Positions 10,401-31,519 are shown, numbered from the stretch's first letter. The stretch is 32,896 nucleotides of DNA from Candidatus Pacearchaeota archaeon (GCA_014728565.1 WJLK01000035.1:1-32896); one strand, 5' to 3'. Notes: generated from the sequence alone by a model not told the origin. Numbers and translations: made by a program.

Positions 10401-10402
10401 TT

Positions 10403-11344
10403 TTAATCCTTTCTTAAGCTTATCTGAATATCATTAACTGAGTCATTCTTATTAATTAAATTATTTAAATTTTTTCTCAGCCACCTAACTCTTCCAAGAG
10501 TCAAATCCTTTTTATACTGGATACCTTTATTCCATGAATCTCTAAAAATAAAGAATATTCCAATAGTTATGATTATAATAAAGATTGTATAACCAATAAC
10601 TTTTTTTACAGCCATTCCTCCAATAACCATCCCAGTTGTCTGAGTATCACCAATAATAACATTTTCTTTAACAGCACTTTCCTCATCAGAATTAATCCCA
10701 ATATAAAAAGTATGTATTCCTTTAGAATCTTCTGGAATCTCCATTACAAAAACTCTTTTTACAATTTTTTTATCTGATTTAAAAGAATCAGAAACTCTAT
10801 TAATCTCTGTTCCTCTGTCATCAACTAACCAGCCACTAACCAAAACATTATTATCAATAAAATTAGAATTGTCAAAAGAATATTCTGCTTTAAGTCCTTT
10901 CTCTGTCTGCTTAACACTGATTATATTTATAACCCTAAGATTCTCTATAACACTAACAACAATAGACTGATTCTCTGAAGTCTCGCTGCATGAAACTTCC
11001 AAATTGCCATAATAATCTCCTACATCTATTTTCTCAGGAACTCTTAAATCAAAAATATAATCTGTATTTTCACCTGGAGCAATACCTTTAACTAAGTTTG
11101 AATAAAACCAATTTTTTGTCTCACCCCTGAAAATTAACCTGCATCTATTAAGAAAAAATTTCCCATTGTTTTTAACCTCCAGAGAAAGAGTTTTTCTCTC
11201 ACCACTCTTAGCAATTATATTTCCAATTTCTGAAAATTCAATTCCTTTATTAAATTCATCATCTTCAAAATTCTCAGCTCTGATAACTCCTAAAATTAAA
11301 ATTAATAAAACACCAATTACAAAAAACACTTCTCTTTTTTCCAT
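10403..11344 (-). CDS. Secreted, C-terminally membrane-anchored surface protein (two Ig/CARDB-like domains), hypothetical
   Basis: Signal peptide, GDYYGNLEVSC-type CARDB-like strand, TTGMVIGG motif, TM helix, basic region. TTTATAAAG (revcomp of 11365-11373) lies 20 nt upstream of the ATG. Confidence 0.65.
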   Translation of the reverse strand: MEKREVFFVIGVLLILILGVIRAENFEDDEFNKGIEFSEIGNIIAKSGERKTLSLEVKNNGKFFLNRCRLIFRGETKNWFYSNLVKGIAPGENTDYIFDLRVPEKIDVGDYYGNLEVSCSETSENQSIVVSVIENLRVINIISVKQTEKGLKAEYSFDNSNFIDNNVLVSGWLVDDRGTEINRVSDSFKSDKKIVKRVFVMEIPEDSKGIHTFYIGINSDEESAVKENVIIGDTQTTGMVIGGMAVKKVIGYTIFIIIITIGIFFIFRDSWNKGIQYKKDLTLGRVRWLRKNLNNLINKNDSVNDIQISLRKD

Positions 11345-11391
11345 TATAAATAAAAAAGAACTTTCTTTATAAAACTAATTATAAAAAATAA

Positions 11392-12105
11392 CTAATGTTT
11401 TTTTATTCTAGCACCTGTAATTATTATAACAAGAATAGCTAGAACAACCAGGAAAACAATAACAATTGGATATCTGCTCCAAAAGTTTTCTGAACTAACA
11501 CTCTCTAATCCAATAACATTTCCTGTCAAAGCAACATTTTTAAAAACAATGTCCTGTTTCTGAGTTCCGTCATTAACCCTCACATCATAATTACCTTCAG
11601 GAGCTGTTAATCTAATTTCTTTTTTTTCTCCTACCTCTAATGGAACAACTGCAGTTTCCTCATGCCCTCCAATAGAGATAATAAGAGATTTTTTATAAGG
11701 AACATTACCAATATTAGCTATAATCAATTTATCCTTCTCTAATCTAATATCTGCTTTTTCTAATTCCTGGACATTAAAAAGCTCTTTAGCCTCAACATCC
11801 TTATAACTAGCAACAACTGCCCAGTAACCACTTATCGAATTCTCCGGAAGTTTAAAAACAACACCCTCTCCAGAATTAACCCTTCCTGAATAAATAACAT
11901 CTGTATAATAGTTCTGAACCTCAAAATTCACCTCTCCAGGAATCTCATTATTGTCATCATCATAAAGAATAACATTAATAAACATCTCCTCTCCAGGAAC
12001 ATAAGTATTATCAATATCTATTCCTATTTTTTCAGCTGAAATTCCTGCTGAAAAAATAATGACTAACAAAAACATCAATAACTGAACATCTCTAATTTTT
12101 TTCAT
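11392..12105 (-). CDS. Secreted, C-terminally membrane-anchored surface protein (two Ig-like domains), hypothetical
   Basis: Signal peptide, beta-rich domains (GYWAVVASY, GNYDVRVNDG), LTGNVIG motif, TM helix, RIKKH tail. TTTAAAAAT (revcomp of 12126-12134) lies 20 nt upstream of the ATG. Confidence 0.65.
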   Translation of the reverse strand: MKKIRDVQLLMFLLVIIFSAGISAEKIGIDIDNTYVPGEEMFINVILYDDDNNEIPGEVNFEVQNYYTDVIYSGRVNSGEGVVFKLPENSISGYWAVVASYKDVEAKELFNVQELEKADIRLEKDKLIIANIGNVPYKKSLIISIGGHEETAVVPLEVGEKKEIRLTAPEGNYDVRVNDGTQKQDIVFKNVALTGNVIGLESVSSENFWSRYPIVIVFLVVLAILVIIITGARIKKH

Positions 12106-14390: not shown

Positions 14391-15452
14391 CTAAAAAAAT
14401 CTTTTTTCCTCAAATACTCTTTCATACAAACTCCTGACTATGCCTGATTTTGGAGCTGGATGACTTGAATTAGTTTTATAAAGCCTGTAAGCATAATCTA
14501 AACCTAATCCCATCCAGGCAGTAAACAAAAAAACAGGTAGAACAAAATCTCCCTGTTTTGCAGAATATTGCAAATACTCCAAAAGAGGCATTGTAGTACA
14601 GAGAGGTATCAGTGCTTCAGAAGCATGAAATACTGCCTGTTCATAACTTCCAAGATTTCTTCTAATAGCAGAATCACTTCCAAAAAGAAAAGTACCTGCT
14701 TTTCTAGGAATACTTCTCCACTTAAAAACTAATTTTTCTAAGTCTTTTCTTCCAAATTCTCTTAATGAAAATACTCTATAATTCCTATGTTCTGGTAAAA
14801 GTCTTCTCCTATTTCTAGTTATGTCTGAATAATCTCCAAAATTATCTTTTCCAAATAATCCTACGAATCTATCATACATTTCAGAACCTGTCTGAATAAC
14901 TTCTCTAAGAATATCTCTCTCATCTGTTTTTTCTCTTGCAGTCATGTACCTATTCACCCATCCACAAAGTTCTTCTCTGGACATGATATGCGAACAAAAA
15001 GGTTTTATAGAAATAGCAGGAAAAACATAAGGTTGCTCTATCTTTATGGCTGTTTCAGAATCATCATCAAAAACAGTATCACAGAAGGGACTTATAATTC
15101 CATAAAAATCCCCTTTATTTTCTACAAATTCAACAACACTCCTATCAATAGTTTTCATAGACAAATCAAAAGGATTAATCTCAAGATAGTAGAGAGGTGT
15201 TATTCTCCCAATCTCAGGATCACTATCTGATATCAGAACAGACATTTCAATATCAGAAATGCCTGAAGCAAGAGATAAACCATAATTATTTCTCACAACA
15301 TCATAATAATATCTTGTAGTATATCTTCGTAATCCAACTAGATAAACCCAAAAATTATCCTTACTTCTATCCCTGAACAAATCATCAAAATCAAAATTCC
15401 CTCTAAAAAAACTCGGAGTTCTAGGTTCATCAGTTCCTAATAATATTGGCAT
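14391..15452 (-). CDS. Hypothetical protein (353 aa), Arg-rich, C-terminal hydrophobic segment
   Basis: Long uninterrupted ORF. The track start at 15461 is TTG; the ATG at 15452 has ATATAAA (revcomp of 15473-15481) 20 nt upstream. I recognise no domain. FVLPVFLFTAWMGLGLDYAY lies near the C-terminus. Confidence 0.6.
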   Translation of the reverse strand: MPILLGTDEPRTPSFFRGNFDFDDLFRDRSKDNFWVYLVGLRRYTTRYYYDVVRNNYGLSLASGISDIEMSVLISDSDPEIGRITPLYYLEINPFDLSMKTIDRSVVEFVENKGDFYGIISPFCDTVFDDDSETAIKIEQPYVFPAISIKPFCSHIMSREELCGWVNRYMTAREKTDERDILREVIQTGSEMYDRFVGLFGKDNFGDYSDITRNRRRLLPEHRNYRVFSLREFGRKDLEKLVFKWRSIPRKAGTFLFGSDSAIRRNLGSYEQAVFHASEALIPLCTTMPLLEYLQYSAKQGDFVLPVFLFTAWMGLGLDYAYRLYKTNSSHPAPKSGIVRSLYERVFEEKRFF

Positions 15453-15507
15453 AAAACTCAAAACTAGAAAACTTTATATGAATTGTTGTTTTCAAGAAAA
15501 TTCATTT

Positions 15508-15963
15508 CTAAGCAGCAGAATGAATTCCAAAACCAAGAAGATTTCTAGAACTGTCTACTAATTGCTGACCACTAATTCCAAGCATATCAAATATCTCTCT
15601 AACATCAGAATCTTCTGACCTTCCAATTCCAATAATCAGATGTTCTGGTCCTCTGTATCCATGTTGCATTTCCTCACCACTCTTCTTTGCAAGATTCACT
15701 ATATTGACTGCAGAATGTGTATAAGGCATATCATATCTATGAGCAATCCTATCTCTAACTGCACCCTCTATTTCAGGAAAAACACCAAGTACCTTACAAG
15801 GAGTGATTCCCTCATCTCTAAGAAGTATTCCTGATAAATCTGTCCTTAACAAACCCATGAGAATACATCCTGGTGTAACTTCTTCATAACCTAGAAAACG
15901 AGCAGTTTCAGCTGCTTCATCTAATACCCTAAACCAGTTTTGGTTATAACTCACATAACTCAT
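15508..15963 (-). CDS. Stand-alone Clp N-terminal (Clp R, double-repeat) domain protein
   Basis: Two repeats fit the Clp_N pattern: VLDEAAETARFLGYEEVTPGCILMGLL...GILLRDEGITP and IVNLAKKSGEEMQHGYRGPEHLIIGIGRSEDSDVREIFDMLGIS. There is no AAA+ module. A TATA (revcomp of 15984-15992) lies 20 nt upstream of the ATG. Confidence 0.7.
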   Translation of the reverse strand: MSYVSYNQNWFRVLDEAAETARFLGYEEVTPGCILMGLLRTDLSGILLRDEGITPCKVLGVFPEIEGAVRDRIAHRYDMPYTHSAVNIVNLAKKSGEEMQHGYRGPEHLIIGIGRSEDSDVREIFDMLGISGQQLVDSSRNLLGFGIHSAA

Positions 15964-17768: not shown

Positions 17769-17866
17769 TAGGTTTTTATATTGAAAAAACCCTAAGTTGA
17801 TAAGGAATACTCTTAACTCTTGAAAAAGCCTTGAGAGTTGATAAGAGAGACTTTCCTTCTATCTAT

Positions 17867-17950
17867 GCGGGGGTGCCGGAGTGGTCAAACGGGCTGCGTT
17901 TAGGCCGCAGTGGCTAAGTGCCTACAGGGGTTCGAATCCTCTCTCCCGCA
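17867..17950 (+). tRNA. tRNA-Leu (anticodon TAG), class II with long variable arm
   Basis: 84-nt fold: acceptor GCGGGGG/CTCCCGC, anticodon stem CTGCG/CGCAG with loop TTTAGGC, variable arm GGC-TAAGT-GCC, T-loop TTCGAAT, discriminator A. Confidence 0.9.
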
Positions 17951-17964
17951 TAAAATCCTAAAAA

Positions 17965-19740
17965 CTATTTTCTCTTCATCCGAGTCTTAAAATCAGAAAA
18001 ACTCTTTGTAAAAGTTTCCTTCAAATCCTTGTAGAATTCAACAAAAACAACATGCCACTTGCTTCTTAATTTTTTATCTTTTCTAACATCTTTTACAATA
18101 AAAGCAATAAACAAAACAACTACCAATAATACTATTACTCCTACTGACCATAAAATTGTTTTGAGACTCAAATTCAGCCTGAATCTTCCAGATTCCTCTT
18201 TTACAGAAGTTTCATTAGAAGGTATCTCTGTCTTATTAGAAACTTCAGATTCATTACTTGTTGTCTCAGGAATTTTATCATGAACAAAAGTAATTGTAAG
18301 ATTTGCCCTGCTACTCTCTGTATCAATATTATTTAATTTAACATTAATATCATAATAACCATCTCCAAGAACATCAAAACTCTTATTCTCTCCATCTAAT
18401 AAAACAGCCTGCTGAGGATCAGAAGAGACATTGATTGTAACAGCATTGCTTATTAAAGAAACAACTCCTACATAATGATTAGTATTATTAATTGTAACTC
18501 TCACTCTTTTTCTTAATCCAAGTAACCTATTATAACCTGCTCTGAACTGAGTCTCAGGAACATAATAAGTAAGAGTCCAGTAACCAGTAAAATTAAAAGT
18601 AGGATTGTCTCCTCCAGAACTACTGTCATCATCATTGGTGTCATTATTGTCATTATCATCAGAAACATTAGTATCATTACCAAAAACAGAGAACAGGCTA
18701 AAATGAGTTATATTTGCCCAGACATAATTACTTCCTGTAACAACATCCTGATTTTCCTCTAACTGCCATGAAGAAGAACTATCATTATAATAATATATCT
18801 TTAATCTTGACTCATTGCTTATACCTGCAGAACTAAGCTCTGAACCTGAATAGGAAATATTAATAAAACACCATTCCAGATTTCCAGAGGTATTAGAATC
18901 TGTGGTTATGTTAATTGTTTTCAATTCCTCTAAATCACTATGAGAAGAGGGAATTGAACCTTCTTCTAATAAAGTCAGAGTAGAAGAAACATTATTAACT
19001 AGAAATAAAGTTAAACTAGTATCAACAACATCAAAACTAACCAGAGTAGAAATATTAGCAGTAATATTAGTTGTATTGACTATATTAACATTAATTTTAA
19101 TAGAACTAGAATTGGTATTTCCAGAACTGTCATTAACACTTATATTCAAAAAATAACGTCTAGGAGATAATACTGTATTATTTTTTATAAATCCAGAGCT
19201 GTTTATTGTAAAATTACCATTATCATCAATAAAGTAAGAACTTATATTAACATTATCACTAGCATCTATATCATAATTAAACTCCTGAGAACAATTGATA
19301 TTTTGATTTTCAATAGAAAAATCAAAATAAGGAGATGTTGTATCCTGCACAGTTACATTTATCAGAGAAAAATTAATATCTCCATCAGTATCATTAACAC
19401 TTATATTCAAAGAATAAATCCCCAAATCAAGAATAGTGTTATTTTTTATAAATCCAGAGTTATTTATCGTAAAATTGCCATTATCATCAATAAAATAAGA
19501 ATCAATAGGTGAGCCACTTGGAGTAGCATTAACATCATAACCCAAAGCCTCTCCATACTCAACAACCTGATTAACAGGCACTGGATCAAAATAAGGAGGA
19601 GGAGTCATAGCAAAGGCACTAATAGCTCCTGTAATATCTCTGAAATCACCATGAACATTAGATATTACAAATCCAAAAGCTAAAAAACCTACAACTAATA
19701 AAAAAGCTACTAAAATACCAGGACCTCTTTTCTCTATCAT
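17965..19740 (-). CDS. Sequon-dense surface protein (591 aa) with two cadherin-like/Ig-like repeats, an Asp/Asn/Ser linker, a C-terminal TM anchor and a basic cytoplasmic tail
   Basis: N-terminal signal/anchor, an 87-aa tandem repeat (YFIDDNGNFTIN.SGFIKNNT...LNISVND), about 38 N-x-S/T sequons by hand count, and the TM helix ILWSVGVIVLLVVVLFIAFIV. It has its own TATA-like box (revcomp of 19761-19769) 20 nt upstream of the ATG. Confidence 0.75.
   Translation of the reverse strand: MIEKRGPGILVAFLLVVGFLAFGFVISNVHGDFRDITGAISAFAMTPPPYFDPVPVNQVVEYGEALGYDVNATPSGSPIDSYFIDDNGNFTINNSGFIKNNTILDLGIYSLNISVNDTDGDINFSLINVTVQDTTSPYFDFSIENQNINCSQEFNYDIDASDNVNISSYFIDDNGNFTINSSGFIKNNTVLSPRRYFLNISVNDSSGNTNSSSIKINVNIVNTTNITANISTLVSFDVVDTSLTLFLVNNVSSTLTLLEEGSIPSSHSDLEELKTINITTDSNTSGNLEWCFINISYSGSELSSAGISNESRLKIYYYNDSSSSWQLEENQDVVTGSNYVWANITHFSLFSVFGNDTNVSDDNDNNDTNDDDSSSGGDNPTFNFTGYWTLTYYVPETQFRAGYNRLLGLRKRVRVTINNTNHYVGVVSLISNAVTINVSSDPQQAVLLDGENKSFDVLGDGYYDINVKLNNIDTESSRANLTITFVHDKIPETTSNESEVSNKTEIPSNETSVKEESGRFRLNLSLKTILWSVGVIVLLVVVLFIAFIVKDVRKDKKLRSKWHVVFVEFYKDLKETFTKSFSDFKTRMKRK
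19131..19240. repeat. Intragenic repeat, copy 2 of a 261-nt (87-aa) period; partner at 19392-19501
   Basis: Blocks such as cattaacacttatattcaaa and ttttttataaatccagag...ccattatcatcaataaa recur at an exact offset of 261 nt, with scattered substitutions. Confidence 0.8.
19392..19501. repeat. Intragenic repeat, copy 1 (partner of 19131-19240)
   Basis: See the paired feature at 19131-19240. Confidence 0.8.
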
Positions 19741-19778
19741 CTCTAAAAAATTTAATAATTATTTATTTAAATACTTTG

Positions 19779-22700
19779 CTAAACCTTAAGCTCCTTAAGT
19801 TTATTTAATACCTCCTCACTTAATTTTTTTGAATCTCTATTTTTTTTATCCCATCTCCAGTACTGATTTCCATAATGAATATAAATCCAGTCAGAATATT
19901 CCATCAACCCTACTAGCTCTCTCACACCATTTGCATAATCAAGTTTTTTATTAACAAAACTAGAATCCTTAGAAATCCAGTTACCATTTGAATACCTATA
20001 CATTATTGATATATGACCTCCATATTCATATCTCTTTATCTCAATATTAATATCCTGCTTTAACATACTGTCACTAAAAACAGCTGTCTCAGATTCAGAA
20101 TTCTGACTGATAAATTTCCCAGATTCAGAATCAAAAAACTTCCCATCTAACTCAGGAAGAAAATTCCTAAAATCACTAAAAACATAAACATGGCTGTTTC
20201 TTATCTCACCAACATCACTATCAAGCAACCAATCCTCTCTCTTAATCAAATAATCTATCTCTTCAGAATCAGCTTCTCTGGTTATATAATAATCAGTAGC
20301 TGTGTTTCCTCTGTAAATAACAAATTTTGTTCCTAAAAACCCTCTCTTCTTAACAACATAATAACCAACTTTTGTCCCTTCTTCAATATCCTCGTAAGTT
20401 ATTTCATCAACAATAACATCCTCTTCAGAACTTTCAGAGGAATCTTCAATATCATCATACAAAACCTCATCAACTATGACTTTTTCATTAGAACTAACAT
20501 AAGATTTAGTATTCAAACTAAGTGTATTATTAGGGTTCCTTCCATAAAGACCTAGAGAAATTTTAGCATACAAATTAGCAAGAATATACTGTCCTCTTGC
20601 TTTATCAACATTAGTAGTTCCATATTTTATTAAATCCTTCAGCCTAGTTACAATAGGCGTTATCTTAGACTCAATTGTTGCTCTGTTATCTTCAGAGTCT
20701 ATTAGAAGTTCCTGAATCATTCTCTCTGCTTCATCTGCAACTGCCCTGCTCTGTGCCTGGGGCCAAATTTCAACAACACTTCCTCCTCCCTGAACAATCT
20801 TTTGCTCAACTTGCTTGTTTACAACAACATCCTTAACACTATTTAGATCCAGCCAGCATTTTATAGTAGGGTCATCACAATAACCAACTTCTTTCCATCT
20901 TTCAAAACTAGACCCTGTCCCATCATAATCTCCACTGCTGTTAATCTGTTTTCCAGGATTCTCAGTTGAACAAACCCTGACAATTCCCTTATTATACAGT
21001 GCTGGTTGCATTGTTTCTTCAATTCCTGCCTGAAGATTAGGATTTATTAAACTATGATAAGAGGGTGTTCCAGCAACACAATCTTCAGAAGTTGTTATCT
21101 GAGTGTTTGTCTGTTCCTCAACATATCTATCACTCATACTATTCAAAAAATAACTAGTACTTACTCTTCCAAATCCACACTCCTCTCTCCCATTAACACT
21201 TATGCATAATTGTTTGAAACCAGAAGGTCCGGTAAAATCAACTGCTTCATCTGCCTGACTGCCTCTTGGAACATAACCTCTAGCCACTACTCTTGAGCCT
21301 GTTGAGTGAATATAACCCATGTCAGGAAGATTTTTCAGATAAACTACATAAGAAGCTCCCATGTCTTTCCCAGAATAGATGTGATAATAAACTTTATAAT
21401 GAGATGTTGGAGGAACACTTGCTGTTGTTAACTGATTTTCATAAAACCATGCATGAAACTGAACAGGACTATCTGGTTCAATCCACGCATCAAAAGCAAA
21501 CAAAGAAGAAGGAAAACTAGATGAAACAAAGCTCTTACATACATCAACTCCTATCTGGTCTGTAGAACGAGACTGAAAAGCTCTCATAGAGTTAACAGCA
21601 TATTCATTCTGAAAATAATTTATAGCACCTTGAGTATTATCCCAAGCTGTCTGAACAGTAGCATACTCACCACCACCCCTTGTTCCCTGCCCATACATTC
21701 CTGAAAAAGTCTGAGGAATAACTGTCTTTAAGAGAGGGCCTGCCTGTTTCCAGAAAAACTCACAAAGATAAATACTTCTTATTTCATCACAGATACCAAC
21801 ACTCCTCCCAGTCTCTATGCTCTCTCTAAGACAATCAACTGTTGAATTCATTATACTTATATAACCATCTATTCCTGCATGAACTCCTGTAAGGCAGATT
21901 GGAACAGCAATACCCTCTTTATAATTAGGAAGACACAAAACAAGGCTTCCAATAATTCCTGACTGTATAACATTATCAACTCTGTAATCTCCCCCTAAAT
22001 CACACCTGGATGGAGGACAGATAACAGGATCACAAACATTAAACATAAGCATACAATCTTCAGGAGCCATGAAATCAGTGCATCTTCCTTCCTCCCCTCC
22101 TGTTGTAATACCTGTTTCAAAACTCTTGCCTCCAACTGTGACTCTCTCCTTACCATACTGCTTTGCAGCATCAGCAATTGCTCTCTGTGCCTTCATAACT
22201 ATCTCTCTTGATTCTGACTCACTTAATCCTGGAAAATCAACCACAGAATTAACAGCATTATAATACCTGCATATATCATCAGCACTTTTCTGGAATTCAA
22301 TCAAACCATTAGGACCTGAATTGCATATATAAAAATTAACAACTCTTCCAGATTCATCATAAGGTTTTCCAAAACCACTCAAAACATAATTCATTCTAAC
22401 ATACCAACCCTTTCTTGTATCAAAAGGTATCTCTGCAGGAAGTCCTTTGTAAGGGGCTCTTTCAAAATACTTGACCTTTAGTTTATCAGGATTACGCATA
22501 GGATTATCATAAGTATCCTCGCTGGCTTCTCTTATTTTTTTCATTCCAGCCATGCTCATGTAATCCCTGACTTCCTCAATAGCTTTTTTATCTTTAACTT
22601 CAGTTCCATCAACAAAAAAGATCTTACCACTAGGATCAGGTGTGTACTCATCTTGACCATCAGAAACAGGCTTAACCTGAACAAGAACCTCTTTTCCTGC

Positions 22701-25700
22701 AACAGATGTTTTTGACTCAAAATTAACACCTCCCACACTGTCTCTAGAAGGTATAAAAATTCTGATCAGAGTATCACCCTCTTTAAAATTCTTATAAACA
22801 GAGTGATCTAAATCCACATTTGTTATCTTCTTTATATGTCCTACTGTCACCTTATCACCAACAGGTGTTGTTGTCTGAATACCTAAATTGTTTTTCTTAG
22901 CCTCTTCATCAGCCTTGATTTTAGAGGTTATATACTCCTCATAATTCTTAGCTTCAAGAACAACATTTCCAAGTTTTTGATCAGCCATCTCTGTCATTAC
23001 TCCACTTCCTCCTGCTCTCCTCACATTATAAAGAGTCATGATATCTCTTCTCTGCTCATGAGTCATATTCTCCCACTCACAAATTCCTTTCTCTCCTGAA
23101 AAAGAGACCTCTGTTTCTGCTTTATCAGGAAGAACAATTTTATCATCAACACTGTTGCAAAATTTATCAAACTCTTTTTTAAATTCTTTTCTAACTTTCT
23201 CACTGTCAACATAACCGTCAAAATCAAGAGGACCTGACCTCTCAACACCTACCCTATCCTTAATATCCTTTAGAATATTGTTAGTCTTTTCAATTTCACT
23301 AGCATAAATATCAACATCCTCATTTATCAGATTATTCTTATCCAACAAGCACTGCTCAACACTGTTATACTTCCCCTCATTAACCAGTTCCTCGCATTTC
23401 TGATTCCATCCACCAGTACCTGTCATAATTGTATTTCTAGCCATGGATTTTCCACTTAATCCATCAACATAGCTTTTAACAGTTAAAATAGATGATGTTG
23501 AGAAACAGGCTGCCTTCATAACTCTTATCACATTTCCTAATTTACTATTAATCTTATTCCAGGCATTAATAGCCTCGATTAAACCATCCATTAATGCTTT
23601 AGCCATCTCCGGACTTAGAGGAATAGCTCTTTTTTCAATTCCAATTCTAAAATGGAAACTTGATTCTGACCTAGGACCATAAGAATTTGGAAGAATGCTT
23701 ATTTTAGCCTGTTCCACCATATTTATCTCGAGAACCTTTACTTCAGAATCTCCAACAACACTCCTCTCTCCTAATTTTATTCTCTTAGTTCTCTCTCCTG
23801 AACCCTTTTCATAATACTTAAGAGTTATATAATCACTTCTTAACTCAGTAAGGGTAAGAGAATAATTTCCAGTCCTGAAAACTTTATTTAATTCTAGTGT
23901 TTCCTGCTTGCCGTCTATTAAAACAACTGCATTTGCTTCACTTGCTTTAGGTTTCTTGAAATCAAGAACATCAACAAAATGAACTTCATTGGAAAGATGT
24001 ATGACTTTTTTTGAATTTGTTGTATCATATTTCATAAGCAAGTCATTTTCACGAGCAGCTTCTTTTGCACTAGTAGAACCAGGATATTCATGTCTTAATC
24101 TTTTAAGAAAATTTTGAGACCTTGCATTCATATCAAACTGTTTTGATAACTTAGCTGCTTCAAGTAAACCTTTTGCAGCATAAGGATCCTCTCCTTCAAA
24201 CATCTTCTCATTAGGAAAAAAATCAACAAGATCCTGGTAATGCTTTATAGCTTTTTCGTAATATCCAAGTGCAAGTGCAGTATTCTCATCATAATCTTCA
24301 GAACTCCAGTCTTTATCCTTTGCAACCAAAACTTTTTCAAGACCAAAACCTTTTTTTAATTCTGAAAGGTCTCCTTTTTTTAATATCTCCACTTTCAATT
24401 TTTTATCCAAATCTTCTTGCTTTATCTTTTTATATTTGGTTCTGTAAGATTTCTTAATCTCTCCAGGAATATTATTCCTCAAATCCTTAAAAGAAGCTCC
24501 TGTTGAAACTAAATTTTCAACAGTCTCAAAAACTCCTTTATCCTGAAACTCGTATTTTGTATCAGAAAAATCATCCTTCACTAAAACAACAAAATCAGCA
24601 CCGTCTGAAGACATTCCTATATATCCTATATAATGATTATCATCTCCTCTTATCTTCTCATTAGCAACATAATCTCCTGACTCACTGTCTAAGAAAAAAC
24701 TTGCTTTTCCAGGATTAAGGCTCAATTCAACTCTTTTTTGCTCTCCGTAACACTCAAGAGTTATCTTTCCTCCACCTCCATAAGTTTGCAAATCAACTAC
24801 TCTGCACCTGTTATTAAGAATCCTATCCCCTCTAGAAACCCATAACTTCTGGTCATTAATCTGTAACAGAGCAGATTCAACAGGAGGTCCAATACTATCT
24901 AATCTTAATCTAAGTCCAGCAGCACAATAAAAACCTCCTAAATAAATCTCCTTGGAGGTCTCTCCCTTTCTAAGAGTTATTGTATTTTCTTTAGAATCAG
25001 CATTTCTATAAATTGAAATTACTGCTCTGTCAGATTCAATTGATTCAGCCCTTATATAACCTTTTCCATTCCAAAAACCATAATCCCTATAATCTCTATA
25101 CCACTCATTATCACTCATCTCACTTAAATAAAAATAAGTATTTCCAACTCCAAAAGCATTCTCTGTACTATAATCTATAACTGCAGTTATATTAGCATCA
25201 ATAAAATCAGGCATATCACCCTCCTTAGAATATCTGCTTAAAACAACAACAAGATAACCTATGTTTTCATCAACAATAGAATTACTATTAAACCCACTTC
25301 CATAACCTCCGTAATTATAACCTCTAAGAGCAGCTCTTGCAGGAAAATAACTAACACCTGAAATTCCCTCTGGATACTCTCCCCTGAATCTTATGCTCCT
25401 CACTGTTGACATATCAATCAGAGGGTTTGTCTGAACCCCAACTACTTTACAAAAAACAGGAACATTCTGCTCTTCTAATAAATCACTTCTAACAACTGCA
25501 GGAGAACAACCTCCTGGAGCTATCTGCATAATAAAATCCTGTCTGTGCATGCAATCCTGCTGATTAAATCCGTAATTACTGTAATAACTTTGAGAATTAT
25601 AACCATAACCAGAATAACTTGGATTAGAATACTGTGTATTTTTTGAATAACCATAACTAGGATAACCTCCATAATCTGAGTAATAACCCTGATTATAGTT

Positions 25701-25895
25701 TGAAGGATGGCTTGTGTTATAGCCAGTTGGATAACCTCCATAACTGGATGAATATCCTGATCCTGAAGGATAACCAGAACCAGTTGGATAACCAGTATTA
25801 TAACCATAAGGAGAGGTTTGAGCAATTAAAATTGGAATAAATAAAATCACAAATAAACTTAAAATTCCAGATTTTATTTTCAGATTTTTTTTCAT
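19779..25895 (-). CDS. Giant secreted protein (2038 aa), orphan: signal peptide, Tyr/Gly/Ser-rich low-complexity head, TPR-like hairpin, Cys-rich core module, acidic repeat, beta-rich tail
   Basis: A 6.1-kb uninterrupted ORF in an AT-rich genome, where stops are frequent by chance. Signal MKKNLKIKSGILSLFVILFIPILIAQ. I recognise no catalytic motif. ALGYYEKAIKHYQDLVDFFPNE...HEYPGSTSAKEAA resembles a TPR/YbgF-like hairpin. It starts 2 nt after the stop of the upstream gene. Confidence 0.85.
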   Translation of the reverse strand: MKKNLKIKSGILSLFVILFIPILIAQTSPYGYNTGYPTGSGYPSGSGYSSSYGGYPTGYNTSHPSNYNQGYYSDYGGYPSYGYSKNTQYSNPSYSGYGYNSQSYYSNYGFNQQDCMHRQDFIMQIAPGGCSPAVVRSDLLEEQNVPVFCKVVGVQTNPLIDMSTVRSIRFRGEYPEGISGVSYFPARAALRGYNYGGYGSGFNSNSIVDENIGYLVVVLSRYSKEGDMPDFIDANITAVIDYSTENAFGVGNTYFYLSEMSDNEWYRDYRDYGFWNGKGYIRAESIESDRAVISIYRNADSKENTITLRKGETSKEIYLGGFYCAAGLRLRLDSIGPPVESALLQINDQKLWVSRGDRILNNRCRVVDLQTYGGGGKITLECYGEQKRVELSLNPGKASFFLDSESGDYVANEKIRGDDNHYIGYIGMSSDGADFVVLVKDDFSDTKYEFQDKGVFETVENLVSTGASFKDLRNNIPGEIKKSYRTKYKKIKQEDLDKKLKVEILKKGDLSELKKGFGLEKVLVAKDKDWSSEDYDENTALALGYYEKAIKHYQDLVDFFPNEKMFEGEDPYAAKGLLEAAKLSKQFDMNARSQNFLKRLRHEYPGSTSAKEAARENDLLMKYDTTNSKKVIHLSNEVHFVDVLDFKKPKASEANAVVLIDGKQETLELNKVFRTGNYSLTLTELRSDYITLKYYEKGSGERTKRIKLGERSVVGDSEVKVLEINMVEQAKISILPNSYGPRSESSFHFRIGIEKRAIPLSPEMAKALMDGLIEAINAWNKINSKLGNVIRVMKAACFSTSSILTVKSYVDGLSGKSMARNTIMTGTGGWNQKCEELVNEGKYNSVEQCLLDKNNLINEDVDIYASEIEKTNNILKDIKDRVGVERSGPLDFDGYVDSEKVRKEFKKEFDKFCNSVDDKIVLPDKAETEVSFSGEKGICEWENMTHEQRRDIMTLYNVRRAGGSGVMTEMADQKLGNVVLEAKNYEEYITSKIKADEEAKKNNLGIQTTTPVGDKVTVGHIKKITNVDLDHSVYKNFKEGDTLIRIFIPSRDSVGGVNFESKTSVAGKEVLVQVKPVSDGQDEYTPDPSGKIFFVDGTEVKDKKAIEEVRDYMSMAGMKKIREASEDTYDNPMRNPDKLKVKYFERAPYKGLPAEIPFDTRKGWYVRMNYVLSGFGKPYDESGRVVNFYICNSGPNGLIEFQKSADDICRYYNAVNSVVDFPGLSESESREIVMKAQRAIADAAKQYGKERVTVGGKSFETGITTGGEEGRCTDFMAPEDCMLMFNVCDPVICPPSRCDLGGDYRVDNVIQSGIIGSLVLCLPNYKEGIAVPICLTGVHAGIDGYISIMNSTVDCLRESIETGRSVGICDEIRSIYLCEFFWKQAGPLLKTVIPQTFSGMYGQGTRGGGEYATVQTAWDNTQGAINYFQNEYAVNSMRAFQSRSTDQIGVDVCKSFVSSSFPSSLFAFDAWIEPDSPVQFHAWFYENQLTTASVPPTSHYKVYYHIYSGKDMGASYVVYLKNLPDMGYIHSTGSRVVARGYVPRGSQADEAVDFTGPSGFKQLCISVNGREECGFGRVSTSYFLNSMSDRYVEEQTNTQITTSEDCVAGTPSYHSLINPNLQAGIEETMQPALYNKGIVRVCSTENPGKQINSSGDYDGTGSSFERWKEVGYCDDPTIKCWLDLNSVKDVVVNKQVEQKIVQGGGSVVEIWPQAQSRAVADEAERMIQELLIDSEDNRATIESKITPIVTRLKDLIKYGTTNVDKARGQYILANLYAKISLGLYGRNPNNTLSLNTKSYVSSNEKVIVDEVLYDDIEDSSESSEEDVIVDEITYEDIEEGTKVGYYVVKKRGFLGTKFVIYRGNTATDYYITREADSEEIDYLIKREDWLLDSDVGEIRNSHVYVFSDFRNFLPELDGKFFDSESGKFISQNSESETAVFSDSMLKQDINIEIKRYEYGGHISIMYRYSNGNWISKDSSFVNKKLDYANGVRELVGLMEYSDWIYIHYGNQYWRWDKKNRDSKKLSEEVLNKLKELKV
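25557..25817 (-). repeat. Low-complexity coding region: 87-aa Tyr/Gly/Ser/Asn/Pro tract (residues 27-113 of the giant protein)
   Basis: TSPYGYNTGYPTGSGYPSGSGYSSSYGGYPTGYN...SYYSNYGFNQQ has 22 Tyr in 87 residues by hand count and only 3 ionisable non-Tyr residues. The DNA shows imperfect ggataacctccataa-type repeats. Confidence 0.85.
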
Positions 25896-25897
25896 TT

Positions 25898-27784
25898 TTA
25901 CTCAAAATTTATATCCAATCCAGATATCTCCAGTTTATTGAAATTAACCTGCAAATCCTCAACCTTATTAGGAACTCCAAAATCATCAATGTCAATAATT
26001 ATTTTCCTGGACTCTCTTAATTGAGATTCTGGAATATAATGTTTCTGCTTACCCCCTCCTGAAATTGCAAATCCAACACTCTGGCTAGGTATATTAAAAT
26101 CAAAACATTTTTCCTCTGTAAATCCAAGAACTCCTCCTAATCCTGATTTTGGAACTTCTATACACTTCTGGCTACTACTTCCTCTTAACACTATATCAGA
26201 ATCTGTATAAGAATAAACCTTTATCTCATACTGACCCTCTGTTAATTTAGCTGTTTTTTGTTCAGGATATGAAATAACCCATGAATCATCATCTCTTGTA
26301 AAAGTCACAACACAATAATCATCTAATTTTCTTCCAGATTTCCTAACCTCGACTTCCAGTAGATACTCTCTATCCAAAACAACATTAATACCTCCTTCAA
26401 TTCTTGGAACTAACTGTTTCTTGGGTTTATAACCTGGAGAACTTGCAATAACATAACCATTAACACACTGAGGAAAATCTGTTGACAAAACAAAATCATT
26501 CCCTTCTGGAATTGTGTAACCCATATCACAAGTTGTATCAAAACACTTATACTTTATATGAGCAGGAATTGGCTCTAGATTAGTATTATATGTATAAACT
26601 CTTGCTTTGGTATTTTTATGTTGGCATAACCCAGGAACAACATTTGGTAATCCCTCAACATCAGAAGCCTCTCTTGGTTTGTTTTTTTCAATAAAAACAA
26701 CTACTGGAAACTGAAACATCTCTTTTCCCTCAAATAACTGAATCATTACTGGAAATCCAAAATCATAAACAAAATGGTAGGGAACATAACAAAAACCCAA
26801 CATTCCCAAGCCTTCCTGCAATCCAACAGGGTCTGCTCTTAGATATCCCTCTTCAGAAGGCCATATCTCTAATTTCATTGGCCACTCTCTTAAATACATA
26901 AAATTAACATTAATATCTACATCCTCTCCAATATCATTAACAAAATACTTATGCTCCTCTTTTTTAATAACATAATAATCACCTTTGACTTTTATTGCAG
27001 GAATATTTCCCTCTAGTGCTCTGGTTAAATTTTCCCTGATATCCCAGACAGGCCAGATAAGACTTGAACAACCTAGTTCAACTCCATCAACAGGGGCATA
27101 TAATCTGAGTATGTCCACTCCGTAATTTTCTAAAAACATCTCATCCATATTATAATCATAAATTTTTTTAGCCAAATCATAATGCTTTCCTAGATTAGAA
27201 TTAACAACTAATTCATGTTTATTTCCACTCCAAGCAACATCCTCTAAACCAACATCCATATCCTGAATAACTTTGATTACTATCTTGTTTTTCTCAATCT
27301 CACTTTCAACATCAATATCACTACTAAGGTTTATCTGAAATCCTTGCTCAGAAAACTGGGATAAATCACACTGCAAAATTCTCTCCTCAAGATACCCACT
27401 CAACTGAGATTGCATTTTTTCTTTAGTAGGAACCTGCTCTCTAGAAATTCCATTGCCAGAAATATAATACCAGTAAGGAACTCCAGAACCTAAAAAATTC
27501 AACTGGGATGAAAAAGGAATATACATACTTCCTGGATAAAATTCAGGAGTATCAATATAACCAGCTTGCTGTCCTAATATCAATGCTCCATCTAAAACAT
27601 TTTCCTCAATACAACCTAGATAATAATCATAAACAGGATCAACCTCTCTGGGAAGTGATTTTTCTAAACTGCTCCTGTATATAAGATAGGCAATTATTCC
27701 TGCTATAATAACAATAACAATTGCTAAAATTACAAAAATAGTAACTTGAGCCCTTCTACTGTTTCTAACCTCCTTATTTATCAT
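25898..27784 (-). CDS. N-terminally anchored extracellular protein (628 aa from ATG 27784; 638 aa from the track's TTG at 27814), orphan
   Basis: MINKEVRNSRRAQVTIFVILAIVIVIIAGIIAYLIY is a short basic head, then Ala-Gln, then a ~24-residue hydrophobic helix (signal-anchor or class III/prepilin-like signal). The rest is beta-rich with paired Cys and no recognisable domain. Confidence 0.8.
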   Translation of the reverse strand: MINKEVRNSRRAQVTIFVILAIVIVIIAGIIAYLIYRSSLEKSLPREVDPVYDYYLGCIEENVLDGALILGQQAGYIDTPEFYPGSMYIPFSSQLNFLGSGVPYWYYISGNGISREQVPTKEKMQSQLSGYLEERILQCDLSQFSEQGFQINLSSDIDVESEIEKNKIVIKVIQDMDVGLEDVAWSGNKHELVVNSNLGKHYDLAKKIYDYNMDEMFLENYGVDILRLYAPVDGVELGCSSLIWPVWDIRENLTRALEGNIPAIKVKGDYYVIKKEEHKYFVNDIGEDVDINVNFMYLREWPMKLEIWPSEEGYLRADPVGLQEGLGMLGFCYVPYHFVYDFGFPVMIQLFEGKEMFQFPVVVFIEKNKPREASDVEGLPNVVPGLCQHKNTKARVYTYNTNLEPIPAHIKYKCFDTTCDMGYTIPEGNDFVLSTDFPQCVNGYVIASSPGYKPKKQLVPRIEGGINVVLDREYLLEVEVRKSGRKLDDYCVVTFTRDDDSWVISYPEQKTAKLTEGQYEIKVYSYTDSDIVLRGSSSQKCIEVPKSGLGGVLGFTEEKCFDFNIPSQSVGFAISGGGKQKHYIPESQLRESRKIIIDIDDFGVPNKVEDLQVNFNKLEISGLDINFE

Positions 27785-27950
27785 TTTTCTCCTTTTTTTT
27801 AACTTTTTTTTCAATTAAAGAAATAATCTCTGTATTAATATCTCTGTCTATTAATTTCTTAAATTTCTCCCATAATTCTTCATTCTCTATTAAAAGTAGG
27901 TATTTTTTCATCTCCAGCTCTTTTTTATATTCCTTTGTATAAAACAGCAT
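27774..27950 (-). CDS. Unlisted small ORF (58 aa; 45 aa if started at ATG 27911), possible ribbon-helix-helix-like protein
   Basis: My own codon-by-codon translation gives MLFYTKEYKKELEMKKYLLLIENEELWEKFKKLIDRDINTEIISLIEKKVKKKEKNDK*. The pattern is strand (KKYLLLIENE), helix (ELWEKFKKLI), helix (INTEIISLIEKK). It overlaps the ATG of the 628-aa gene by 11 nt and is below the track's length cutoff. Confidence 0.4.
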   Translation of the reverse strand: MLFYTKEYKKELEMKKYLLLIENEELWEKFKKLIDRDINTEIISLIEKKVKKKEKNDK

Positions 27951-27962
27951 ATTTAAATCTTT

Positions 27963-27994
27963 CTTACTAACTTAGTTAGTTAGTTACTAAGTAA
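27963..27994. promoter_or_regulatory. Nested direct/inverted repeat cluster (candidate operator) just upstream of a TATA-like GATTTAAAT (revcomp of 27951-27959)
   Basis: The sequence is cTTACTAAcTTAGTTAGTTAGTTACTAAgtaa. TTACTAA occurs twice (27964-70, 27984-90) flanking (TTAG)x3. ACTAA-c-TTAGT and CTTAGT-N9-ACTAAG are inverted repeats. Confidence 0.4.
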
Positions 27995-28058
27995 ATTTCC
28001 CAAACAAAAATTAAAAATTATAAAAAAAATCAGAAAAAATTGGAAAAAATTAGAATAA

Positions 28059-28130
28059 TGGCCCCACCAAGAATTGAACTTGGCTCTCTTCCACGTCAAG
28101 GAAGTGTTCTAACCATTGAACTATGAGGCC
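28059..28130 (-). tRNA. tRNA-Val (anticodon GAC)
   Basis: The reverse complement folds as a 72-nt cloverleaf: acceptor GGCCTCA/TGGGGCC, D-arm GTTC/GAAC, anticodon loop TTGACGT, T-loop TTCAATT, discriminator A. Confidence 0.9.
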
Positions 28131-28162: not shown

Positions 28163-28441
28163 TTAACTAGCTTTACCTTTTTTACCGCCCTTAACCTGTC
28201 CCCAGTTTTCTCTGATATACCTTACTTTCAAAGAATTTTTATCAATCCTAGCAAGATAACATAAATCTTCAAAAAAATCTCTTGGCAAAGTTCTTCTCTC
28301 AATATAATAATTTTTAAGTGTTGAATATTTAATATTAAATCCAAACTGTAGAATTCCTCTCAATGAAAAACAACCAATTCTCTCTATAACTAGATCTAAG
28401 AATTTTCTCTGCTCTCCTTTTTTAAACAAAACTCTGTCCAT
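28163..28441 (-). CDS. Hypothetical protein (92 aa), possibly HTH-like
   Basis: Complete ORF. LRGILQFGFNIKYSTLKNYYIERRTLPRDFFEDL looks like a helix-turn-helix-type segment, followed by a Gly/Lys tail. There is no clear TATA at the canonical spacing. Confidence 0.45.
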   Translation of the reverse strand: MDRVLFKKGEQRKFLDLVIERIGCFSLRGILQFGFNIKYSTLKNYYIERRTLPRDFFEDLCYLARIDKNSLKVRYIRENWGQVKGGKKGKAS

Positions 28442-29655: not shown

Positions 29656-30654
29656 TTATGATTTAACTGCTCCAAAAACAATATTTCCTGAACAAGATCC
29701 AGCAACACCTATTGGAACATAAATTCTCCAGTAAGTGTCATTTAATGCCTCATTTTCAGTATCATTCTGCCTAAAAGCTAAATCAAACTGCTCTGTCACT
29801 GGACTGCTAGTTAAATTAGTATAATTTGCCTCAAACTGACTTAAAGTAAGAGTTCCAGGATGAGACTCTGTAACATTATATTTCTCCCAAAAGATTGAAA
29901 TATTCTGAACATTTCCATAAGTGCAGTTCATTGCATAACCATCTCCCTCAGTTCTTGCATAACCACTTAAATCAAGATCAATATCAACATTTCCATAATT
30001 TATAACAGAGGTTATGTTTTCATCAGAAACATAAGTTGCATTAACTGTACCATAATTTATAGTATCTGGAAGACCTACTGCAAGCAACTCATCAACAAAA
30101 CTAATGTTACTTCCTGTAGCATTCCAATTCTGAGTATCATTAATCCAGACTGTGCAGTTCCAGTCAGTTGAATTTGCATAATACTGAACAGGAAAAGTAC
30201 AGTTTAAGAGAGCTAAAAATTCATCATCAGTATAACCCATAAAACTAGTGAAATTTCTGGTTATATTGCAACTATCATTTGTATAATGAAAATTATTATC
30301 ATCACTGTCGCCATAAGAAGAACTGGTTGCAAAAAACCTTCCCCAACCAGAATTAAGATCAGTATCATTATTATAATCTCTAACTACAGCTATGCAAGTA
30401 ACTAACTGGGTACTATTCGGACTCAGGGTAACATTATCACCATAGTTAATATGAACACTCAAAAGTTCAGGCCATGTATTTCCAACCTCCAAATAAGTAA
30501 TAACAGTAACATTTCCCCCAACACCTCCAAAAACAGGAGAGCTAAATAATGGAAGTATTAGAAAAATCAATAGAGATTCAATTAAAATAAAAAAGACTAG
30601 TTCTAGTTTCCACCCTACTTTTTTTATTCTTTGTTTAAATTTTCCAAATTTCAT
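29656..30654 (-). CDS. Secreted/anchored sequon-dense protein (332 aa), hypothetical
   Basis: N-terminal KKVGWKLELVFFILIESLLIFLILPLF hydrophobic segment, 22 N-x-S/T sequons by hand count, beta-rich, ends YWRIYVPIGVAGSCSGNIVFGAVKS. It starts 2 nt after the upstream stop. Confidence 0.7.
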   Translation of the reverse strand: MKFGKFKQRIKKVGWKLELVFFILIESLLIFLILPLFSSPVFGGVGGNVTVITYLEVGNTWPELLSVHINYGDNVTLSPNSTQLVTCIAVVRDYNNDTDLNSGWGRFFATSSSYGDSDDNNFHYTNDSCNITRNFTSFMGYTDDEFLALLNCTFPVQYYANSTDWNCTVWINDTQNWNATGSNISFVDELLAVGLPDTINYGTVNATYVSDENITSVINYGNVDIDLDLSGYARTEGDGYAMNCTYGNVQNISIFWEKYNVTESHPGTLTLSQFEANYTNLTSSPVTEQFDLAFRQNDTENEALNDTYWRIYVPIGVAGSCSGNIVFGAVKS

Positions 30655-30656
30655 TT

Positions 30657-31430
30657 TTAATCAAGCTCAATATAAAGATAATAAGCAGTTCTTGTATCTG
30701 ATCCAGGAGTTGCATCTTCAGGAACAATCATCTGAAAATCATAAGTATTTCCATCAAAACCAACCTCACCTTCCTCTGAAAGTGCTGCATAAATAATATC
30801 TGAACCATCGTACAAAGCAACCTCCTCCCAGTAATTCTGATCACTCTGATTATTTGTATAGGTATTAGTAGTTGGACATGAATTTGCAGTTATGGATATT
30901 GTTCCAACATAAAAAGATTCATGAGCTCCTGATTCAGTTTCATTATTGCTTTCATTAAAAGTGGCATTAAAAGTAACAGTTAAATTATCATTAGGACTTG
31001 TATGATTAAAATAAGTATTTTCATTATTCAGATGAGTTATATTAGAACAATTTATATTGGTCCATGTTGGTGTCGTTGAATTTTTAGTAGCAAAAACTCT
31101 TCCACTAGCTGATGTAAACCCCCAATCAAATATTGTTGAACCTGTCTGATCAGTTAGTGCAAACTGTCCATTAATCCACCCAACAAATGCTTTCCAGTGA
31201 GTATTTTTTGTAGTTGTACTTAAATTCAAAGTTGCAATATATCCTCCAGATATATTAATCTCTTTTCCTGAAACATCAGATTTAGTCTCATTAGCAGTTA
31301 CATTTATAGAATCAGGACCTTGAGGAACAGCATTAATACTTGCTAAAGAAAAAAGTAAAATTATTCCAATTATTAAAAGAATTACAATTAAGTTCTGCAC
31401 TACTTCTTCTTTATTTTCAGGCCTCTTCAT
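30657..31430 (-). CDS. Secreted sequon-rich protein (257 aa), paralogue of the 273-aa protein
   Basis: Signal/anchor LIVILLIIGIILLFSLASINA. Shares W.AF.G, TWTNINC.NIT, WEEVALYD, YDFQMIVPED and a C-terminal YYLYIELD with the neighbouring gene. Confidence 0.7.
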   Translation of the reverse strand: MKRPENKEEVVQNLIVILLIIGIILLFSLASINAVPQGPDSINVTANETKSDVSGKEINISGGYIATLNLSTTTKNTHWKAFVGWINGQFALTDQTGSTIFDWGFTSASGRVFATKNSTTPTWTNINCSNITHLNNENTYFNHTSPNDNLTVTFNATFNESNNETESGAHESFYVGTISITANSCPTTNTYTNNQSDQNYWEEVALYDGSDIIYAALSEEGEVGFDGNTYDFQMIVPEDATPGSDTRTAYYLYIELD

Positions 31431-31519
31431 TTTTATCTCTGTACTTTACCTTTCTCCACTGAGAGTTAAGAAAATTCCTACTAACTAGAGCAAAGTTCCC
31501 TTAAATAATAATAGAAACT

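Follow-up and report, generated by a model that had tools for sequence, protein, structure and literature searches.

A stretch of 32,896 nucleotides (nt) from a Candidatus Pacearchaeota archaeon (GCA_014728565.1, WJLK01000035.1:1-32896), referred to here as the window, encodes on its minus strand a pilin-like protein of 628 amino acids (p628) followed immediately by a secreted protein of 2,038 amino acids (the giant). These two genes are the real unit of the locus, an uncharacterised pair kept by hundreds of Pacearchaeota and Woesearchaeota genomes. Together with a small first gene, p45, which is optional and present in about half of the loci, they form a conserved core unit of three genes and ~8 kb. 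We consider the chances about even that this unit specifies a pilin-tethered, autoregulated complex for host contact and envelope breaching. The window is low-GC (~31%) sequence that encodes TFIIB and ribosomal protein S3Ae; because it is archaeal, scans for sigma-70 promoters and intrinsic terminators are not applicable. The components of the unit are the following:

27959-27995 (with one mismatch) or 27963-27994 (eight perfect units), alike on both strands: the (TWAS)n array, a candidate operator, abutting the promoter

27950-27963, minus strand: B recognition element (BRE) and TATA box of the operon, GAAAGATTTAAATA, a perfect match, 38 nt upstream of the p45 ATG

27774-27911, minus strand: p45, basic, with the pattern MKKYLLLIExE..W..FK...DIN.EI..LI and a beta-alpha-alpha arrangement; a putative DNA-binding autoregulator

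25898-27784, minus strand: p628, with a class III signal, RRA/QVTIFVILAIVIVIIAGIIAYLIY-R (slash at the predicted cleavage site), an N-terminal alpha/beta module of ~245 residues and then beta-sandwich domains (638 amino acids if read from the TTG, 25898-27814)

19779-25895, minus strand: the giant, 2,038 amino acids

21870-21971, minus strand: hydrophobic hairpin of the giant, residues 1309-1342, VIQSGIIGSLVLCLP-NYKE-GIAVPICLTGVHAGI, rich in small residues

20796-22508, minus strand: most conserved core of the giant (residues 1130-1700), which holds a CDPVICPxSRCDLGG block and 19 of the 30 cysteines

19782-20528, minus strand: hypervariable tail of the giant, residues ~1790-2038

The giant was called an orphan in the original prediction, made from the sequence of the window alone, and this description did not survive comparison with other genomes. 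A word-indexed search yielded 555 homologues. The best 120 of these are 1,481-2,610 residues long (mostly ~1,850-2,400) and 39-55% identical to the query, most of them aligning over ~84% of it; all come from Pacearchaeota or Nanoarchaeota bins, where they are annotated as 'hypothetical' or 'TPR repeat protein'. A phmmer search, run exhaustively with residues 740-1760, matched 1,153 clusters at 50% identity (E<=0.001), 931 of them at E<=1e-30, and a scan of one genome per GTDB species detected a relative in 397 genomes. Among 80 fetched loci the labels are nearly all Pacearchaeota, Woesearchaeota or Nanoarchaeota, with a few reading 'archaeon' and one 'bacterium'. p628 is better conserved than the giant, with >2,274 matches and 50-67% full-length identity among the best 120.

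Linkage was assessed by tblastn of the window proteins against 82 related loci. p628 lies directly upstream of the giant in all loci that have DNA there, the other contigs beginning inside the giant gene. The adjacency of the two genes, proposed at the outset as a check on whether they belong together, is thus found in every informative locus. The spacings first read from the window are also correct: p45 and p628 overlap by 11 nt, 2 nt separate p628 from the giant, and 38 nt separate the giant from a fourth gene, p591, discussed below. In the related locus L001 the p628 and giant genes overlap. By the same search p45 is detected in about half of the 82 loci; where present it is 59-89% identical and always the first gene. 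Three long contigs display the arrangement in its wider setting, with a 45-codon open reading frame (called in two of the three), a protein of ~625-633 residues and then the giant, between S3Ae, NDK, SRP54 and FtsY on one side and, in two of the three, TFIIB, S8e, LSM and RNase Z on the other.

The N-terminus of p628 is readily recognised as an archaeal class III (prepilin-type) signal, the motif being present and its cleavage predicted. In 60 aligned homologues the residue at −1 is small without exception (G in 24, A in 23, S in 13), positions −2 and −3 are mostly K or R, and position +1 is Q in 58; 23 hydrophobic residues follow, and then R or K. EppA-type substrates are known to have Gln at +1. 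An invariant junction of a small residue followed by Gln would not be needed in a plain signal anchor. A motif scan of the related loci revealed two more proteins of ~250 residues that carry a KR[GA]Q[IV]TIF signal, one in L044 (15626-16438), directly downstream of the giant gene, and one in L062 (14237-14962). Alignment of profiles with hhalign showed these paralogues to be homologous to residues 5-246 of p628 (probability 97.6%, E=3.9e-12), and p628 thus consists of a pilin-sized N-terminal module to which an extension of ~380 residues has been joined. The AlphaFold2 (AF2) model of p628, with a predicted local distance difference test score (pLDDT) of 80, contains an N-terminal helix (residues 10-39), an alpha/beta region and several beta-sandwiches from about residue 390. 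Foldseek comparison of this model with the PDB returned only generic multidomain matches of the Ig/CnaB type, with template modelling scores up to 0.2. The protein has 11 cysteines and two N-X-S/T sequons.

The giant begins with a Sec signal peptide (residues 1-26) and a variable stretch rich in Y, S and G (residues 27-110), the latter detectable in only 4 of 251 relatives. A conserved scaffold of ~1,750 residues follows (about 100-1790), with conserved blocks at residues 100-400, 750-850 and 1150-1700. Its 30 cysteines are mostly invariant, and sequons are depleted, numbering seven where 15 are expected. After the signal peptide there is no hydrophobic segment of transmembrane length and no membrane anchor. 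Conservation is highest in the core (mean column conservation 0.66-0.82), which is 44-69% identical in 251 of 251 relatives. An AF2 model of residues 740-1760, built from an alignment of 38 sequences, reached a pLDDT of 66. It shows long helices, beta domains and, at low confidence, a helical region that coincides with the most conserved, cysteine-rich part of the protein. Here lies the hydrophobic hairpin, whose arms (residues 1309-1323 and 1328-1342) outrank every other segment of the mature protein in hydropathy; it is flanked by cysteines within the most conserved block, and its pLDDT is below 50 despite this conservation. Searches with the model against the PDB and BFVD gave nothing at E<=0.001, and searches of the PDB with the single sequence or the family profile gave nothing significant; a match to the haemagglutinin HA2 profile was discarded as insignificant (E=0.53).

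The original prediction had recognised no catalytic, ATPase, S-layer or secretion-machinery motif in the predicted extracellular proteins, and this has held up: all four gene products, p591 among them, are unmatched in Pfam, NCBIfam, PHROGs and PDB sequences. Neither p628 nor the giant is covered by any characterised family; for both, relatives are detectable only within their own families, and no fold matches.

Conservation of the giant drops abruptly after a conserved helix at residues ~1760-1785 with the pattern N-x3-[KR]ARG-x2-LL-x-LY-x-K. Beyond it, residues 1800-2038 give weak, partial matches in 14 of 251 relatives and in two of the 25 whose cores are closest. When 243 tails were compared with one another, 600 of 29,403 pairs (2%) could be aligned, and even where the cores of a pair share 60% identity or more, the tails could be aligned in fewer than 7% of pairs. 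In no pair is the tail more than 15 points more similar than the core, which argues for fast divergence and leaves recent swapping of tail cassettes unsupported. A Pfam scan of 19 long family members showed what such tails may carry. An SLT domain is present in two of the 19 (P0385, residues 2097-2207; P0404, residues 2403-2510), followed in P0404 by Amidase_3; a GDSL lipase, an FGE-sulfatase-type domain and ankyrin repeats lie beyond residue 2,000 in long relatives; Peptidase_M23 forms an internal insert in P0379 (residues 687-789); and Phage_lysozyme2, Phage_lysozyme, DUF2272 and Peptidase_M10 are also found in long relatives, at positions that were not mapped.

Two sets of known proteins resemble this architecture. 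CdiA, Rhs and phage receptor-binding proteins likewise have a long conserved body, a junction (a helix in the giant) and a tail that differs between close relatives and is sometimes enzymatic. The giant differs from these proteins in lacking homology to them, a two-partner-secretion (TpsB) or type VI secretion context, a cognate downstream immunity gene and any sign of recent cassette exchange; an immunity gene was ruled out because the slot downstream of the giant is either empty or filled with unrelated genes. The fam00969 'murein-like lytic transglycosylase' proteins (Castelle et al. 2021, PMC8204110; also PMC10936187) come from the same clades, are extracellular and reach ~3,000 residues, and SLT domains occur in the tails of the giant's relatives P0385 and P0404. 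In contrast, the window giant and its 120 closest relatives have no SLT domain, and the published note concerns the SLT domain only. The giant family is probably the fam00969 family, an identification that we regard as provisional.

Expression of the unit appears to start from one promoter. A scan with the archaeal BRE/TATA pattern RAAANNTTTAWATA found a perfect site before p45, whose ATG is preceded by GGAG, and a one-mismatch site (19764-19777) before p591. From p45 to the stop codon of the giant there is no further BRE/TATA except a single mismatched site inside the giant gene, which we take to be chance. This pattern fits a single transcript for the three genes of the unit, with p591 transcribed on its own and essentially without a leader. 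The small protein had been given as 45-58 residues, and the shorter reading is the one that stands. The ATG of the 58-residue version (27774-27950) overlaps the TATA box, and every homologue begins at the 45-residue ATG (MKKYLLL...); the longer start is thereby ruled out.

The candidate operator noticed in the window at 27963-27994 is real and gains weight from comparison across genomes. The array of eight perfect TWAS units is unique in the window, where none is expected by chance, and continues straight into TAAG-AAAG-ATTTAAATA, the BRE/TATA itself. In 1.46 Mb of related loci it lies upstream of p628 in 26 of 26 strict and 36 of 36 relaxed matches. When 29 loci were aligned on their TATA boxes, the array fell in register, from about −35 to −75 and touching the BRE, followed by TAAGAAAS-RTTTAWATA. 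An automated test of 68 loci found that the array and p45 agree in presence or absence in 67 (33 with both, 34 with neither, one discordant; Fisher p=2.5e-18, not corrected for shared ancestry), and p45 is in fact present in L075, the one locus in disagreement. Where p45 is absent, p628 is directly preceded by a plain TATA. These comparisons make a strong case for p45 as a DNA-binding regulator and for the (TWAS)n array as the site to which it would bind.

The sequence pattern of p45 suits a ribbon-helix-helix (RHH) fold, a suggestion to which the searches lend no statistical support; a p45 profile search of the PDB returned no RHH protein. As with the MetJ, Arc and CopG repressors of this class, p45 is a protein of ~45 residues with a strand-helix-helix pattern, encoded by the first gene of the operon that it putatively regulates, and the promoter is adjoined by an operator in which short symmetric units are repeated in tandem. 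Tandem met boxes are comparable to the (TWAS)n array. Unlike those repressors, p45 has no significant family match, and the 4-nt period of the TWAS units is unusual. In some loci p45 is replaced by a non-homologous regulator. L013, L017 and L030, and L010 as judged by its upstream DNA, have another protein of 62-68 residues with a helix-turn-helix, and other palindromes. This protein is encoded at 7735-7929 in L013, 4718-4924 in L017, 7911-8099 in L030 and before p628 in L010 (start ~7845). It has the motif ..GYTISELSKKL.LSRQTIANCFAFLEGAQKV.., and the upstream palindromes resemble TATTG..TTATCAATA.

The original prediction had gone further and grouped four genes, including p591, into one module delimited by two tRNA genes. 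As described there, four co-oriented minus-strand open reading frames do fill the interval between the tRNAs, at the coordinates first given; the features on either side of the core unit are these:

28059-28130, minus strand: tRNA-Val(GAC), the conserved upstream neighbour

19764-19777: BRE/TATA of p591, AAAGTATTTAAATA, 23 nt from its ATG

17965-19740, minus strand: p591, 591 amino acids, a surface glycoprotein with a C-terminal transmembrane anchor, cadherin-like repeats and dense sequons; its TATA (19764-19771) belongs to a leaderless-type promoter

17866-17951, plus strand: tRNA-Leu(TAG), the conserved downstream neighbour

The tRNAs are not the ends of a module. An Rfam scan of the window found five tRNAs and nothing else, and ARAGORN placed tRNA-Val(GAC) upstream and tRNA-Leu(TAG) downstream of the pair across the clade, the latter in many loci 0-200 nt past the stop codon of the giant and in some 0-20 nt. 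The shared order is L44e-S3Ae, tRNA-Val, p45, p628, giant, tRNA-Leu, TFIIB, a conserved housekeeping neighbourhood. Since the same tRNAs flank the pair clade-wide and the slot between the giant and tRNA-Leu holds unrelated genes in other loci, the tRNA bracket is ancestral synteny, with p591 in a variable slot, and an integrated island bounded by tRNAs is ruled out. Between L44e and tRNA-Val the window also encodes a basic protein of 92 residues (28163-28441, minus strand) that matches no family; many related loci have it in the same place, 33-72% identical.

As a protein, p591 is unremarkable, a surface glycoprotein of the variable archaeal kind; as a gene, it is a lineage-specific insert between the giant and tRNA-Leu. 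Its linkage to p628 and the giant, assumed in the original prediction, was found in none of the 82 loci, all of which lack p591. The promoter of its own that had been claimed for it was confirmed. With 38 sequons against 13 expected from composition and only two cysteines, p591 differs from p628 and the giant as sequon-rich, cysteine-poor proteins differ from sequon-poor, cysteine-rich ones, and so the locus encodes two classes of extracellular protein. It has only 48 homologues, matching piecewise, among them proteins named cadherin-repeat or PGF-pre-PGF and proteins with Big and He_PIG domains; the best match is named a cadherin repeat protein, and the best alignment is to P0244 (43% over 309 residues), which the PGF-pre-PGF model matches while not matching p591. 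Larger gaps between the giant and tRNA-Leu in other loci (0.3-3.4 kb) contain genes for small soluble proteins and various membrane proteins, none resembling p591. One of the slot genes we take, by eye, to encode a MazF/PemK-like toxin. Another, of ~107-130 codons and with a product ending ..EIEHKLHLSDQ.., recurs in L005, L022, L025, L026, L029, L033, L034, L035, L038 and L056 and resembles, again by eye, a ribosome hibernation factor (HPF/RaiA).

These observations suggest a model in which p45 would bind the two-fold-symmetric (TWAS)n array and set the expression of its own gene, p628 and the giant. p628 would be cleaved before Gln+1 by a prepilin peptidase, its hydrophobic N-terminal helix sitting in the membrane or in an assembly like a type IV filament while its beta-sandwiches project outward. 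The giant, translationally coupled to p628, would be exported by Sec and, having no anchor of its own, is probably held at the surface by p628. Because the tail evolves very fast and includes hydrolases or a lipase in relatives, it may be the part that recognises or attacks the envelope of a partner. The tightly coupled, probably self-regulated set of extracellular proteins with which this analysis began does exist, shorn of its four-gene extent and of p591, and makes a strong candidate for an apparatus of surface or host contact. Pacearchaeota appear strongly host-attached (bioRxiv 10.1101/2020.05.14.094862), and bacterial walls are the proposed target of large SLT proteins of Pacearchaeota and Woesearchaeota (PMC8204110).

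A precedent for such an arrangement is provided by the tips of type IV pili (PilY1 with minor pilins, PilB/PilC of Streptococcus sanguinis, and archaeal type IV filament loci that include large adhesins). There, too, a prepilin-type protein is encoded beside a very large, adhesin-like non-pilin protein that it presumably presents; modular pilins likewise join a pilin module to extra C-terminal domains, with a role in adhesion at the cell surface. p628 and the giant differ in having no sequence or fold homology to these proteins, and in having no filament ATPase, platform protein or peptidase beside them. PilY1 is half as large as the giant, which is also cysteine-rich and has its variable part at the C-terminus.

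Several results weigh against a pilin-tethered host-contact complex. The missing machinery extends beyond the immediate neighbours, as no prepilin peptidase (PibD/EppA/FlaK), filament ATPase or platform protein is encoded in the window or in the 10-kb flanks of related loci. p628 gave no match at E<=1 to Pfam Class_IIIsignal or to curated pilin models. Publications disagree on whether DPANN archaea have type IV machinery at all: its pilus components have been stated to be missing from DPANN genomes (bioRxiv 10.1101/2020.05.14.094862), while some of these archaea do have type IV filament systems and large adhesins (bioRxiv 10.64898/2026.04.22.720090). The tail of the window giant has no domain recognisable in Pfam, NCBIfam or PHROGs, the precomputed Pfam annotation of the best 120 relatives includes no peptidoglycan hydrolase, and the family members that do bear enzymes are mostly longer than the window giant and more distant from it. 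Against RHH families the best match of p45 is to Arc, at E=0.2 and in one of 27 members, so that the label 'RHH-like' first given to it has no support from sequence statistics. None of the conserved parts of the unit can be given a function through homology or fold, for which reason its function is inferred only; contact between p628 and the giant, in turn, is suggested by gene order alone. Finally, the universality of the pair and its housekeeping location would also suit a structural component of the envelope.

This last point leads to an alternative in which the two proteins form a structural coat instead of a contact device, the giant as the outer canopy and p628 as the membrane stalk of a two-component envelope like SlaA/SlaB of Sulfolobales. 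The resemblance is considerable: in both cases a secreted protein, large and without an anchor, is encoded next to a smaller partner that is rich in beta-sandwiches and anchored in the membrane, here by coupled genes that are found in all informative loci of the clade among ribosomal-protein, TFIIB and tRNA genes, and no other S-layer candidate is recognised in the window. However, the anchor of p628 is N-terminal and pilin-like, not a C-terminal transmembrane helix, and there is no sequence or fold similarity to SlaA, SlaB or any other S-layer protein. The giant is sequon-depleted and cysteine-rich, whereas the other surface proteins of the window are strongly sequon-enriched. S-layer proteins are usually far less conserved than the giant's core, and neither a hypervariable tail that is lytic in relatives nor a dedicated regulator and operator would be expected of a constitutive lattice. 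We therefore regard a structural coat as possible but doubtful. A bolder proposal, and an improbable one, is that the giant breaches membranes directly, its cysteine-rich core, with the hairpin and long helices, inserting into the membrane of the partner and opening a cytoplasmic bridge or pore for feeding, while the tail and its wall hydrolases clear the way. It would be equally improbable in its fuller form, where p628 serves as the tether and the hypervariable tail, a peptidoglycan hydrolase in some lineages, sets host specificity. The hairpin invites such an interpretation, being composed of the two most hydrophobic segments, rich in G, S and A, in the most conserved block, with invariant cysteines on its flanks, helices of 30-50 residues preceding it and AF2 unconfident exactly there despite high conservation; wall-lytic domains are also present in relatives. 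Yet all segments fall short of a transmembrane helix in length and hydrophobicity, the structure searches of the PDB and BFVD matched no fusogen or pore former, the HA2 match is insignificant, and the low pLDDT may merely reflect the shallow alignment.

Quite improbable, in our estimation, is a scavenging platform, in which p628 would present the giant in the manner of a bindosome and tail enzymes would degrade wall and lipid debris for uptake, with no specific attachment to a host. Class III-signal proteins encoded apart from pilus clusters are known as substrate-binding proteins (bioRxiv 10.64898/2026.04.22.720090), the metabolism of Pacearchaeota is minimal (PMC8204110; bioRxiv 10.1101/2020.05.14.094862), and relatives' tails contain hydrolases and a lipase. 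Against this, most family members, the window giant included, have no recognisable enzyme domain, no transporter is linked to the pair in any locus, and a conserved non-enzymatic scaffold of 1,750 residues is hard to justify for simple hydrolysis. The version offered in the original prediction, a tRNA-bracketed island in which all four genes make one apparatus around an orphan, had in its favour the shared orientation of the genes and their tight packing between two tRNAs. It is now very hard to credit, given that p591 is a different class of protein with its own promoter and no counterpart in the 82 loci, that the tRNAs flank the pair throughout the clade and that the giant has >1,000 relatives.

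Other genes of the window deserve mention in their own right. At 29656-32341 (minus strand) there are three co-oriented genes for sequon-dense secreted proteins of 332, 257 and 273 residues, with 22, 13 and 10 N-X-S/T sequons, respectively. The last two look like paralogues, ending in YYLYIELD and YYFYVELE, and the three, which occur all together only in the related locus L022, may be subunits of a surface filament or coat. Three further co-oriented genes at 9870-12105 (minus strand) encode proteins of 176, 313 and 237 residues, each with an N-terminal signal peptide and a C-terminal transmembrane anchor, one of them with a weak, sub-threshold match to an MG2 domain. A 738-residue fusion at 6431-8647 (minus strand) combines a histidine-phosphatase (residues 67-201) with a class II aminoacyl-tRNA synthetase core and an HGTP anticodon-binding domain; a synthetase of 557 residues with the same two domains, encoded near a related locus, does not have the phosphatase fused to it. 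At 14391-15963 (minus strand) a 356-codon open reading frame with a TTG start and no family match is followed by a gene for a 151-residue protein whose sole Pfam match is a single Clp_N repeat.

Pilin-associated giant adhesins are known already, as is the kind of protein that joins a conserved body to a variable tail, and SLT-bearing members of the family have been mentioned in the literature. In the literature searched we found no description of the obligatory pilin-like partner, of the scaffold-and-tail architecture or of the (TWAS)n-p45 pair. Pacearchaeota and Woesearchaeota rank with the most abundant of the uncultured archaea, with minimal metabolism and apparently firm attachment to hosts, and to our knowledge no machinery for attachment or feeding is known for them. 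What had been an orphan becomes a clade-wide target, a pilin-like anchor with a giant secreted scaffold and a fast-evolving tail, joined in half of the loci by a regulator and its operator. The type of tail can be compared with the type of host, and wall hydrolases would point to bacterial hosts; p628 and the giant would be the obvious choice of antigens if contact sites are to be labelled in enrichment cultures, and the (TWAS)n-p45 pair offers a clean case for the study of archaeal promoter control. If the pair is instead the cell envelope, it would define the envelope of a major archaeal radiation, and if the giant proves fusogenic, it would be the first molecular candidate for the means by which DPANN archaea breach the envelopes of their hosts.

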